A program made the translations under genes and the position numbers. The notes under the pieces were generated by a model that ran no database searches, had not been told where the DNA came from, and was given only the letters and a program-made list of their open reading frames with translations. From Escherichia coli (GTDB lineage: Bacteria; Pseudomonadota; Gammaproteobacteria; Enterobacterales; Enterobacteriaceae): a stretch of DNA of 64,000 bases. Where the stretch lies: the NCBI RefSeq assembly GCF_003334405.1, contig NZ_QOWM01000003.1; one strand, written 5' to 3'. The number at the start of each line of letters is the position of its first letter. The stretch's first letter is position 1. Below, piece after piece: positions 2,905 through 25,304 of this stretch.

Positions 2905-4796
<1,892 letters not shown>

Positions 4797-14573: not shown

Positions 14574-14743
14574 GATAGTGCTCCACAAAGGTTATATTTG
14601 TTGCTGTGGCGTCACTATAATTTGTTATTTTATTATTTGCAAAAGGTAAAATATAAACTTCAATTATTAAAAATACGAATGGGAATAAAACGCATTACCG
14701 CTATTTCTTTAATCAGCGAAGATCCCCTCGCTGATTAAAATAT

Positions 14744-15067: not shown

Positions 15068-15230
15068 GGTCCAGCCAGAAGAGTAAGAGAAAGCACTATT
15101 TTACGCGTTACAGTGCTGCGACAATGGCCGGAAAAGACGCCTGGCAGGCGCTATTTCTTGCCATCTGTAGGTGTCAGAAATAGGGGGCTGTTTTTTGATT
15201 ATCATTTTTATAACATTAAAGGGGTATTTA

Positions 15231-15246
15231 TGTGATTTGCATCACA
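15231..15246. promoter_or_regulatory. CRP binding site upstream of azuC
   Basis: Perfect palindromic TGTGA-TTTGCA-TCACA; a second CRP-like site TGTGA-N6-TCATA at 15261-15276. Confidence 0.65.
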
Positions 15247-15328
15247 TAAAGATTGATTTTTGTGATGGTTGTCATATTATAAGCGCAAAGACAATAACAC
15301 CTGTATAACAAATAGTCGGAGTGCCGCG

Positions 15329-15415: not shown

Positions 15416-15444
15416 CAAAAAACCTGCTCCGGCAGGTTTTTTTG
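15416..15444 (+). terminator. rho-independent terminator of azuC
   Basis: ACCTGC-TCCG-GCAGGT hairpin followed by TTTTTTT. Confidence 0.75.
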
Positions 15445-15859: not shown

Positions 15860-16363
15860 TCAATGCAGCTGGTGTGACACGACATTCAGAACATGTTGGT
15901 CGGTCTGCACAGGGCACATACCCGCAAGTTTCGCACTGCGCACTTCATCAAGAATGGTTTGCAGCAACAGACCATCATGCTGCTGTTCTTTTTCCAGATC
16001 GCGCAGGAAATTGACGGTTGAATCATCATTCAGTTCTTTCGCTTCATCGGCTAACTGTGCCAACGTACTAGAACGTTGCTCGTATTCTTCCATCGTTTTT
16101 TGGAACAGTTCTTCCAGAGAGTTCAGTTTTTCACCGGGAACATCAATGGCTTTAACGATGGGGGTAGCGCCGACACTCTTCATAAAGTTAAACATGCGCA
16201 TCATTTGGGTCACATTACTCTGTGCCTGGGCGCGAAGGAAAGTGGCGGTGCCGTTCAGACTCTGTTCAGAACACCAGTTACTCAGGTGAAGGTAGAGATT
16301 GGATGCGTAAAACTCGCGGTTCATTTGAGAGTTGAGTTTGAGAAGCATTCCAGCGGTTGCCAT
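15860..16363 (-). CDS. ftnB: ferritin-like protein FtnB (167 aa)
   Basis: Translation [31 protein letters not shown]... matches FtnB. Confidence 0.93.
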
Positions 16364-17159
16364 ACCTAATATCCTTATATCCAGAAGTGGAGAGGTGCAA
16401 GATAAATCAAAACACCATAATTACTGTTTGCAGAATAATTCCTTTCTGCCGGTCCGAAATGTGATCGTGGAGTCAATTCTGACGATGATCTGAAATAAGA
16501 ATAACGTCTGAACGGGTATAAGAAAATGCTTAAATCATCAAGTTTATATATTTTTACATTTCATTGATGAAATCAATGTAACTGCAATGAATTTTAATGA
16601 TAGTGCTTTTTGTATCTTGTTGATATTAATCAATGAATTTGAATTCATGATGAAGTGATGATTTTATAAAACGTTTTTTCATTTTTGCGAGATGGCTCTC
16701 ATTATACGTGTTCTGTTAATTAATGAGCACAGTGATAATTAATGACGAAATGAATGACGTGCATTTTCCACATCTTTGAGTTGCGGTTATTACACCATTT
16801 CAAAAACTCAACGCCAGGTAATGCGGCCTATTGACTGGTTAAAAAGAAGACATCCCGCATGGGTACCAAAGACAACAAGGATTTCCAGGCTAATCTTATG
16901 GATTAATCTGCTGTGCATTCGACAATTTGTCTGACAAATTGGCTTTCCCTTATGTCTTTTCCCGCTAAATTTATGCACGTTCTCACTGTAATTCTGCGAT
17001 GTGATATTGCTCTCCTATGGAGAATTAATTTCTCGCTAAAACTATGTCAACACAGTCACTTATCTTTTAGTTAAAAGGTAATGCTTTGTTTTCCGATTAA
17101 TTTAACGAATGTCATTCGTTTTTGCCCTACACAAAACGACACTAAAGCTGGAGAGAACC

Positions 17160-18149
17160 ATGCACAAATTTACTAAAGCCCTGGCAGCCATTGGTCTGGC
17201 AGCCGTTATGTCACAATCCGCTATGGCGGAGAACCTGAAGCTCGGTTTTCTGGTGAAGCAACCGGAAGAGCCGTGGTTCCAGACCGAATGGAAGTTTGCC
17301 GATAAAGCCGGGAAGGATTTAGGGTTTGAGGTTATTAAGATTGCCGTGCCGGATGGCGAAAAAACATTGAACGCGATCGACAGCCTGGCTGCCAGTGGCG
17401 CAAAAGGTTTCGTTATTTGTACTCCGGACCCCAAACTCGGCTCTGCCATCGTCGCGAAAGCGCGTGGCTACGATATGAAAGTCATTGCCGTGGATGACCA
17501 GTTTGTTAACGCCAAAGGTAAGCCAATGGATACCGTTCCGCTGGTGATGATGGCGGCGACTAAAATTGGCGAACGTCAGGGCCAGGAACTGTATAAAGAG
17601 ATGCAGAAACGTGGCTGGGATGTCAAAGAAAGCGCGGTGATGGCGATTACCGCCAACGAACTGGATACCGCCCGCCGCCGTACTACGGGATCTATGGATG
17701 CGCTGAAAGCGGCCGGATTCCCGGAAAAACAAATTTATCAGGTACCTACCAAATCTAACGACATCCCGGGGGCATTTGACGCTGCCAACTCAATGCTGGT
17801 TCAACATCCGGAAGTTAAACATTGGCTGATCGTCGGTATGAACGACAGCACCGTGCTGGGCGGCGTACGCGCGACGGAAGGTCAGGGCTTTAAAGCGGCC
17901 GATATCATCGGCATTGGCATTAACGGTGTGGATGCGGTGAGCGAACTGTCTAAAGCACAGGCAACCGGCTTCTACGGTTCCCTGCTGCCAAGCCCGGACG
18001 TACATGGCTATAAATCCAGCGAAATGCTTTACAACTGGGTAGCAAAAGACGTTGAACCGCCAAAATTTACCGAAGTTACCGACGTGGTACTGATCACGCG
18101 TGACAACTTTAAAGAAGAACTGGAGAAAAAAGGTTTAGGCGGTAAGTAA
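17160..18149 (+). CDS. araF: L-arabinose ABC transporter periplasmic binding protein AraF (329 aa)
   Basis: Recognised N-terminus MHKFTKALAAIGLAAVMSQSAMA (signal peptide), RBS GGAGAG; track ORF N-extended to 17109. Confidence 0.95.
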   Translation: MHKFTKALAAIGLAAVMSQSAMAENLKLGFLVKQPEEPWFQTEWKFADKAGKDLGFEVIKIAVPDGEKTLNAIDSLAASGAKGFVICTPDPKLGSAIVAKARGYDMKVIAVDDQFVNAKGKPMDTVPLVMMAATKIGERQGQELYKEMQKRGWDVKESAVMAITANELDTARRRTTGSMDALKAAGFPEKQIYQVPTKSNDIPGAFDAANSMLVQHPEVKHWLIVGMNDSTVLGGVRATEGQGFKAADIIGIGINGVDAVSELSKAQATGFYGSLLPSPDVHGYKSSEMLYNWVAKDVEPPKFTEVTDVVLITRDNFKEELEKKGLGGK

Positions 18150-18164
18150 TTTGCCGGAAAAATT

Positions 18165-18187
18165 CCCCTCTGCATGATGCAGAGGGG
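18165..18187 (+). promoter_or_regulatory. intra-operon stem-loop between araF and araG
   Basis: 10-bp perfect inverted repeat CCCCTCTGCA-TGA-TGCAGAGGGG with no U-tract; likely an mRNA stability or processing element. Confidence 0.5.
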
Positions 18188-18218
18188 GTGTGAACGACCA
18201 GTGATTCACGGAGACGTT

Positions 18219-19733
18219 ATGCAACAGTCTACCCCGTATCTCTCATTTCGCGGCATCGGTAAAACGTTTCCCGGCGTTAAGGCGCTGACGGATATTAGTT
18301 TTGACTGCTATGCCGGTCAGGTTCATGCGTTGATGGGTGAAAATGGCGCAGGAAAATCAACTCTCTTAAAAATCCTCAGCGGCAACTATGCGCCAACCAC
18401 GGGTTCTGTAGTGATTAATGGGCAGGAAATGTCCTTTTCCGACACGACCGCAGCACTTAACGCGGGCGTGGCGATTATTTACCAGGAACTGCATCTCGTG
18501 CCGGAAATGACCGTCGCGGAAAACATCTATCTCGGCCAGCTGCCGCATAAAGGCGGCATTGTGAATCGCTCATTGCTGAATTATGAGGCGGGTTTACAAC
18601 TTAAACATCTTGGTATGGATATTGACCCGGACACGCCGCTGAAATATCTCTCCATTGGTCAGTGGCAGATGGTTGAAATCGCCAAAGCGCTGGCGCGTAA
18701 CGCCAAAATTATCGCCTTTGATGAGCCAACCAGCTCCCTCTCTGCCCGTGAAATCGACAATCTTTTCCGCGTTATTCGTGAACTGCGAAAAGAGGGGCGG
18801 GTAATCTTATACGTTTCTCACCGTATGGAAGAAATATTTGCCCTCAGCGATGCCATTACTGTCTTTAAAGATGGACGTTATGTCAAAACCTTTACCGATA
18901 TGCAGCAGGTTGACCACGACGCGCTGGTGCAGGCGATGGTCGGGCGCGACATTGGCGATATCTACGGCTGGCAACCGCGTAGTTATGGCGAGGAGCGCCT
19001 ACGTCTTGATGCTGTGAAAGCACCAGGCGTGCGTACGCCAATAAGTCTGGCGGTTCGCAGTGGTGAAATTGTTGGGCTGTTTGGTCTGGTAGGGGCGGGG
19101 CGTAGCGAATTAATGAAAGGCATGTTTGGCGGGACGCAAATCACCGCCGGTCAGGTTTATATCGACCAACAGCCGATCGATATTCGTAAACCGAGCCACG
19201 CCATTGCCGCAGGCATGATGCTCTGCCCGGAAGATCGCAAAGCGGAAGGCATTATTCCCGTGCACTCCGTTCGCGACAATATCAACATCAGTGCCAGACG
19301 TAAACATGTGCTCGGCGGTTGTGTAATCAACAACGGTTGGGAAGAAAACAATGCCGATCACCACATTCGTTCGCTCAACATCAAAACGCCGGGCGCGGAG
19401 CAACTGATCATGAATCTCTCAGGCGGAAATCAGCAAAAAGCCATTCTGGGCCGCTGGTTATCGGAAGAGATGAAGGTCATTTTGCTGGATGAACCTACGC
19501 GCGGCATTGATGTTGGCGCTAAGCACGAAATATATAACGTAATTTATGCGCTGGCGGCGCAGGGCGTGGCGGTGCTGTTTGCCTCCAGCGACTTACCTGA
19601 AGTCCTCGGCGTTGCCGACCGGATTGTGGTGATGCGGGAAGGTGAAATCGCCGGTGAATTGTTACACGAGCAGGCAGATGAGCGTCAGGCACTGAGCCTT
19701 GCGATGCCTAAAGTCAGCCAGGCTGTTGCCTGA
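18219..19733 (+). CDS. araG: L-arabinose ABC transporter ATPase AraG (504 aa)
   Basis: Recognised N-terminus [17 protein letters not shown]; duplicated ABC ATPase domains; track ORF N-extended to 18174. Confidence 0.95.
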
Positions 19734-19744
19734 GTAAGGAGAGT

Positions 19745-23100
<3,356 letters not shown>

Positions 23101-25246: not shown

Positions 25247-25304
25247 CTGATACGGTGAGGCGCAACATTCCAGCAGCGGTAACGACGTACCGCTGCTTTT
25301 TTTT
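25210..25304 (+). ncRNA. motR: probable MotR sRNA (motA 5' leader-derived)
   Basis: Interval between the sigma28 promoter at 25177-25203 and the strong terminator at 25273-25304, about 95 nt; consistent with the described sigma28-dependent MotR sRNA. Confidence 0.4.
25273..25304 (+). terminator. rho-independent terminator after flhC
   Basis: 9-bp stem GCAGCGGTA/TACCGCTGC followed by T8. Confidence 0.75.

Follow-up and report, generated by a model that had tools for sequence, protein, structure and literature searches.

Since the work on malEFG and hisJQMP in the 1980s, stem-loops placed after the binding-protein genes of ABC importers have been a textbook means of expressing the genes of one operon unequally, and the REPs between hisJ and hisQ of Salmonella are intercistronic, mRNA-stabilising stem-loops that follow the binding-protein gene. 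The class of element is thus long known. The malE-malF REP (Newbury, Smith & Higgins, Cell 1987) and the puf cases are cited in Dar & Sorek (2018), whose abstract presents such protective structures as common across the operons of E. coli. Work on bidirectional intrinsic terminators (Ju, Li & Liu 2019) is listed among the references of PMC7815308. For the arabinose transport operon araFGH, no text on an araF-araG hairpin or on araF-only transcripts was found in the accessible literature: Dar & Sorek (2018) do not list araF, and mentions of it in PMC9023263 and PMC5714132 are primer and strain names. Here we describe a hairpin in the araF-araG spacer of E. coli, its counterparts in related genera and the two RNA strands on which it can fold.

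We analysed a stretch of E. coli DNA of 64,000 nucleotides (hereafter the window), which is K-12-like around the junction; 2 kb at the site are 100% identical to MG1655 and match 5417 of 5426 complete E. coli genomes. Gene identities were transferred to the window from the RefSeq annotation of an identical K-12 record. This places the coding sequences of araF (periplasmic L-arabinose-binding protein) at 17160-18149, with its stop codon TAA at 18147-18149, of araG (ABC ATPase) at 18219-19733 and of araH at 19748-20734, all on the plus strand. The 69-nt araF-araG spacer is composed of TTTGCCGGAAAAATT-CCCCTCTGCA-TGA-TGCAGAGGGG-GTGTGAACGACCAGTGATTCACGGAGACGTT, and the junction as a whole reads ...GGTAAGTAA (araF stop), TTTGCCGGAAAAATT, CCCCTCTGCA, TGA, TGCAGAGGGG, GTGTGAACGACCAGTGATTCAC, GGAG, ACGTT and the ATG of araG at 18219. 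The Shine-Dalgarno sequence GGAG of araG (18210-18213, plus strand) lies 5 nt before this ATG, in a block CACGGAGACGTTATG that is conserved in most genera compared. The hairpin itself occupies 18165-18187 of the plus strand, with a 5' arm CCCCUCUGCA (18165-18174), a loop UGA (18175-18177) and a 3' arm UGCAGAGGGG (18178-18187), and starts 15 nt 3' of the araF stop. Its stem has 10 pairs, of which 7 are G-C, and an 11th pair, U18164·G18188, is possible. Directly 5' of the stem lies a run AAAAATT (18158-18164), which the minus strand reads as AAUUUUU. The preliminary description of this DNA had reported a perfect 10-bp inverted repeat with a 3-nt loop inside araFGH, between araF and araG; the sequence bears out both arms and the loop exactly, and the RefSeq mapping agrees with the location.

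The RNA fold prediction that had been proposed as a check likewise returned a stable hairpin. Folded alone, it has an energy of about -18 to -20 kcal/mol (-19.8 kcal/mol for a 27-nt form), and the 69-nt spacer has a minimum free energy (MFE) of -23.7 kcal/mol, with a z-score of -2.5 to -2.7 against dinucleotide shuffles. The window contains 5 distinct perfect hairpins with stems of 10 bp or more and loops of 3-8 nt, compared with 0.33 expected from shuffles, and a second copy of the 23-mer was not found in the window at up to 3 mismatches (0 expected). The inverted repeat in E. coli is not a chance palindrome. When Rfam 15 covariance models were run over 16000-21500 with E-values up to 10, no match overlapped the junction. 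Within the species, 4969 of the 5417 genomes share all 40 nt around the hairpin, which occur at a median of 1 place per genome, and about 8% of the complete genomes (448/5417) differ at 1-2 of these 40 positions. In one strain, ECSC054, an IS200/IS605-family element of about 711 bp (L083 2782-3561), with tnpA on the opposite strand, has entered the A-run (window 18158-18162) immediately 5' of the hairpin, so that araF is split from the hairpin and araG while the hairpin is intact.

The four remaining perfect hairpins with 10 bp or more in the window lie at 14710-14737, 15227-15250, 15417-15442 and 25272-25297. That at 15417-15442, AAAAAACCTGC-TCCG-GCAGGTTTTTT, resembles a bidirectional terminator, that at 25272-25297 is followed by T8, and that at 15227-15250 is an A/T-rich palindrome, TTTATGTGAT-TTGC-ATCACATAAA. 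The other binding-protein gene in the window, tcyJ, also has a strong hairpin before the genes that follow it, dcyD-tcyL-tcyN (spacer 3706-3809, hairpin at about 3720-3749). This hairpin, AAAAAAGGGCGC-TTTCACT-AGCGCCTTTTTT, is flanked by A6 and T6 (U6 in RNA), its spacer has a z-score of -3.35, and judged by this anatomy it looks like a bidirectional intrinsic terminator or attenuator.

We compared the junction at 80 orthologous araF loci, taking a single genome for each species; they represent about 30 enterobacterial genera and yielded 79 distinct araF-araG spacers. A gapless stem of 6-17 bp (median 10) is present in all 79, with a median onset 14 nt after the araF stop; the best single hairpin reaches -16.7 kcal/mol or stronger at every locus, and the spacer MFE lies below that of its dinucleotide shuffles in all 80 (median z-score -2.43). 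Spacers measure 53-152 nt and their lengths differ by non-multiples of 3. The hairpin sequences fall into many types that are largely unalignable between genera, with stem arms CCCCTCTGC/GCAGAGGGG in Escherichia, GCCCCTCAC/GTGAGGGGC in Enterobacter and allies, GCCTCCCGC/GCGGGAGGC in Klebsiella and Raoultella, GGGCGAGCGC/GCGCTCGCC in Atlantibacter and AACGGGCGTG/CACGCCCGTT in Mangrovibacter, whereas a REP-like GCCGGATAAG... palindrome serves as the hairpin in several Citrobacter, Buttiauxella and Cedecea species. Because hairpins occur in all spacers, yet belong to unalignable types that include REP-like ones, it is structure and not sequence that is conserved at this junction. On this comparative evidence, independent hairpins at one position in every distinct spacer are not neutral. 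The comparison across about 30 genera illustrates structure-not-sequence conservation, in which unique hairpins and REP elements can stand in for one another.

Where the spacer is longer, up to 152 nt, the unique hairpin is replaced by one or two REP/BIME-like palindromes of the GCCGGATAAG.. or GGTGGATGG.. types. Such loci were seen in Citrobacter (L008, L013, L014, L016, L018, L046, L048 and L053) and Buttiauxella (L038, L061 and L077), and also at L052 and L056.

Compensatory change could be followed within the clade around Enterobacter, for which 28 sequences were aligned (Enterobacter, Leclercia, Lelliottia, Silvania, Huaxiibacter, Phytobacter and relatives). A MAFFT alignment of the spacers left the arms out of register, RNAalifold gave only 4 basal pairs on it, and it was therefore replaced by an alignment with a covariance model as aligner. 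In the latter, which leans towards the modelled structure because it is fitted to that structure and its sequences are related, standard pairs fill 99.2% of the pair cells, and in 5 of the 9 pairs both partners have changed (21 cells). In 500 column shuffles, neither the covariation score nor the percentage paired ever came up to the observed value, and sliding the 3' partner by 1-3 columns lowered pairing to 39-63%. G·U cells number 12, against 2 non-pairs. The covariance model of the Enterobacter type did not reach the Escherichia hairpins, and the putative homology of the two types is drawn from a CCCCTC...GAGGGG core and the position only. As for the flanks of the Enterobacter-type hairpin (GTGATTG upstream, CCAGACGTACAC downstream), they are more conserved than the upper stem; a 39-nt block has 91% mean identity in the L009-L045 group (about 7-14 and 37-48 of the spacer; e.g. 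L009 3497-3535), and no consistent pairing was found between these flanks. Conservation and covariation, as patterns in aligned sequences, indicate that the structure is under selection and speak to its existence rather than to its role.

Because a palindrome folds on both strands, strand asymmetry was examined. A G·U pair in the sense RNA becomes C·A in the antisense RNA. Of the two strands of the spacer, the sense strand gives the more stable fold at 65 of the 80 loci, and its shuffle z-score is the lower one at 52 of 80 (Wilcoxon p = 0.003, uncorrected for phylogeny). Three natural E. coli variants of the stem were examined. In the O157:H7 lineage, C18170U in the 5' arm gives a sense U·G pair (-17.2 kcal/mol versus -13.3 kcal/mol for the antisense), and in WL297, which also has a G-to-A change extending the A-run, C18173U does the same (-17.8 kcal/mol versus -15.2 kcal/mol); both C-to-U changes become A·C mismatches on the antisense RNA. 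The third, T18171G in TUM1887, is a true mismatch in the stem. Together, these asymmetries moderately favour the operon-strand RNA as the selected molecule.

The explanation that we consider most likely, with reasonable probability and good support from the comparative data, is that the hairpin is a 3'-end protective stem-loop of the araF mRNA, giving an araF-only message and an excess of AraF. On this reading selection maintains it in the sense araFGH mRNA, where it would mark the 3' end of the araF segment and protect it. Transcripts of the whole operon would be cut, or would end prematurely, downstream of the hairpin, after which 3'-to-5' exonucleases would degrade back to the G+C-rich stem and halt there. 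A long-lived araF-only message would be left, and the binding protein would be made in excess over the ATPase and the permease, araG being the first cistron expected to be under-expressed relative to araF. We infer both the exonuclease barrier and the AraF excess from the structure and its position. With a stem onset about 14-15 nt after the stop, the structure would lie just past the reach of the terminating ribosome, and since the E. coli stem begins 15 nt past the stop, terminating ribosomes would not need to melt it. Two marks of the decay-barrier class were found at the junction, namely a stable stem-loop past the footprint of the terminating ribosome and selection with compensatory change. 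The substitution of REP-like elements for the unique hairpin in some genera also fits a stabilising role, as does the strong Term-seq 3' end at the equivalent hairpin between mglB and mglA. For a G+C-rich stem that lacks a U-tract and directly follows the first, most highly expressed cistron, a barrier to 3'-to-5' exonucleases is the classical role left once canonical termination is set aside. Horazdovsky and Hogg, and Scripture and colleagues, in the Journal of Molecular Biology in 1987, are said to have reported a dyad and an abundant araF-only mRNA together with the sequence of the operon. The operon is among the best studied, and a stabilising hairpin in it matters little beyond annotation.

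The minus strand adds a second aspect. A terminator scan flags the hairpin there, as a G+C-rich stem followed by AAUUUUUCC. Adams et al. 2021 (eLife, PMC7815308, supplementary file 1) list a curated Term-seq 3' end at MG1655 1985131 (+), labelled 'antisense, araF', with 1565 reads in LB at OD 0.4, 1137 in LB at OD 2.0 and 1414 in M63, and give its sequence as GAATCACTGGTCGTTCACACCCCCTCTGCATCATGCAGAGGGGAATTTTT-C-CGGCAAATTA. Entries in this table consist of 50 nt, the 3'-end nucleotide and 10 nt, a format that we verified on the thrL row, and the listed sequence is identical to the minus strand of the window. The antisense RNA thus ends with the C at 18157 (-), after ...GGGGAAUUUUU, directly past the U5 run and at a distance of 8 nt from the stem, as is characteristic of intrinsic terminators; a stem with a U-tract and an in vivo RNA 3' end at that U-tract were both found. 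The data with and without bicyclomycin of the same study place a Rho-dependent region antisense to araF at 1985454 (+), with a Rho score of 5.25 at low coverage, corresponding to window 17834 (-), about 320 nt beyond the antisense end at the hairpin. A further antisense 3' end, 1984165 (+) on the M63 sheet (PMC7815308), corresponds to window 19123 (-) inside araG. From these mapped ends it follows that low-level antisense transcription crosses the junction, part of it ending at the hairpin and the rest by Rho. A promoter-like site on the minus strand at 19279-19251 is a consensus match only.

The antisense 3'-end counts are near the lowest in the Term-seq tables read. At least 5 A residues within the 9 nt upstream of the stem occur in 12 of the 79 spacers, mostly from Escherichia and the Citrobacter R56 group, and every one of the six Escherichia lineages, as well as one Citrobacter subgroup, retains the A-run; the other 67 spacers have the hairpin without it. 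We regard the antisense terminator-type activity as real but secondary, and possibly incidental. The mapped antisense end means that one and the same stem can terminate or stabilise a transcript of the other strand, a mildly unusual aspect that may be of interest for studies of pervasive antisense transcription and of terminator evolution. A dual use of the stem, as a decay barrier without a U-tract in the sense direction and, through an A-run added in Escherichia, as an intrinsic terminator in the antisense direction, seems to us a rather unlikely arrangement. If it held, a single stem inside an operon would insulate a highly expressed first cistron in both directions, and antisense transcription arising inside araG would be kept from entering araF.

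Among the other explanations, sense attenuation is compatible with the favoured one. RNA polymerase would pause or terminate between araF and araG, by non-canonical intrinsic termination or aided by Rho, and fewer transcripts would reach araG and araH. The position and stability of the hairpin suit this equally well, the analogous hairpin of mglB, with UUAUU behind it, has a strong 3' end, and the tcyJ-dcyD junction in the window offers a full hairpin with U6. A U-rich run after the stem on the sense strand, however, exists in only 3 of the 79 spacers (Atlantibacter L032 and L039 and Siccibacter L037), and 76 are without it; in E. coli the 3' flank is GUGUGAAC, the sequence within about 9 nt of the stem is not U-rich (downstream GUGUGAACG), the terminator scan has no plus-strand site at the junction, and 69 nt of untranslated RNA offer little room for Rho to load. 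With a sense U-tract in 3 of 79 spacers and GUGUGAAC in E. coli, canonical intrinsic termination is not the shared function, and we consider an attenuator as such unlikely. The Term-seq tables (LB and M63-glucose) contain no sense 3' end at the junction, which is uninformative as the operon is uninduced there; stabiliser and attenuator are not distinguished by these data, and both may act together. The preliminary description had taken the absence of a U-tract and the place of the hairpin as typical of a 3'-stabilising or attenuating structure. Its first point is right for the operon strand and wrong for the minus strand, where AAUUUUUCC follows the stem, and its second agrees with the comparative data in so far as these fit a sense-strand structure at the araF 3' end, but it overlooked the antisense hairpin with its U-tract. 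That the hairpin is primarily an intrinsic terminator for antisense transcription from araG, shielding araF from both convergent polymerases and antisense RNA, and folding in the sense RNA as a by-product, we think quite improbable. The anatomy of the minus strand is canonical, a 10-bp G+C-rich stem followed by AAUUUUU, in each of the three conditions the Term-seq end falls exactly past the U-run, antisense coverage and a Rho-dependent region are found some 320 nt beyond it, and the A-run is retained in the six Escherichia lineages and the Citrobacter subgroup. Against this, the signal is weak (about 1100-1600 reads, compared with about 148,000 at mglB), 67 of 79 spacers keep the hairpin without the A-run, the antisense stem suffers from wobbles and natural E. 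coli variants that spare the sense stem, and no antisense promoter or product was identified.

Control of araG translation, in which the structure or its flanks would pair with the araG ribosome-binding site or in-frame ATGs in the hairpin would provide a masked start, is very improbable. It draws on some MFE folds of the spacer in which the 5' flank pairs with the region beside GGAG, and on an ORF listing that extends araG in frame to the ATG at 18174; the hairpin, however, ends 22 nt before the Shine-Dalgarno sequence and does not include it, and the RefSeq start of araG at 18219 stands behind a good one. We rejected an outer helix between the 5' flank and the araG ribosome-binding region: it appears in some MFE folds and shows no covariation, the 5' flank GTGATT being constant while its 3' partner varies. 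The ATGs at 18174 and 18177, in the hairpin loop and 3' arm, would add 15 codons in the araG frame (mechanical ORF 18174-19733) and have no Shine-Dalgarno sequence; as starts of araG they were rejected too, since spacer lengths that differ by non-multiples of 3 do not conserve the frame in other genera. A feature of the DNA itself, whether a palindromic site for a protein, the scar of a decayed REP or mobile element, or a neutral remnant, is hardly credible. The repeat is a perfect palindrome in DNA, REP-like elements sit at the same spot in some genera, and an IS200/IS605 element has inserted adjacent to it in one strain. On the other hand, compensatory changes that keep pairing while the sequence shifts are the opposite of what a sequence-specific binding site would show, G·U pairs are mismatches in DNA, and independent hairpins at one place in 79 of 79 spacers are not neutral. 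REP/BIME membership of the E. coli hairpin was rejected, as it is present in a single copy per genome, has no second copy in the window and is unlike REPs in sequence.

The protective stem-loop that we favour for the sense RNA, and the antisense end beside it, can be set against four kinds of known system. The minus strand resembles intrinsic terminators in its G+C-rich stem, its U5 run and an RNA 3' end 8 nt past the stem. Unlike bidirectional terminators, the araF hairpin has no U-tract on the operon strand, so that it would act in one direction, facing against the operon, and an antisense-aimed terminator inside an operon is an unusual setting for intrinsic terminators. As a barrier, the araF hairpin would be like the puf 'decay terminator' (Chen, Beatty, Cohen & Belasco, Cell 1988), an intercistronic stem-loop that halts 3'-to-5' decay and lets the upstream segment outlive the downstream one; the puf stem-loop is larger and more complex and belongs to another organism and operon, and the likeness is in mechanism only. 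The paralogous mglBAC operon has the same order of genes (binding protein, ATPase, permease), and mglB is likewise followed, a few nucleotides past its stop, by a 9-bp G+C-rich stem. At the mglB-mglA junction, a strong primary sense Term-seq 3' end lies 5 nt after this hairpin (147,960 and 77,439 reads). It differs from araF, where GUGUGAAC follows the stem, in that UUAUU, a partial U-tract, follows the mglB hairpin, and unlike mglB, araF has no sense 3' end in the uninduced Term-seq data.

In its setting the araF hairpin is also like those of malE-malF and hisJ-hisQ. Unlike the REPs of these operons, the araF hairpin of E. coli is unique, single-copy and outside the REP/BIME family, and its stabilising effect is one that we infer. 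As in those operons, it stands immediately 3' of the first, binding-protein cistron of an ABC-importer operon, its stem is stable, G+C-rich and without a U-tract, and the expected outcome for araF would, by analogy, be a larger amount of mRNA for the binding protein than for the membrane components. REP-like palindromes even take the place of the hairpin at the araF-araG junction of some relatives.
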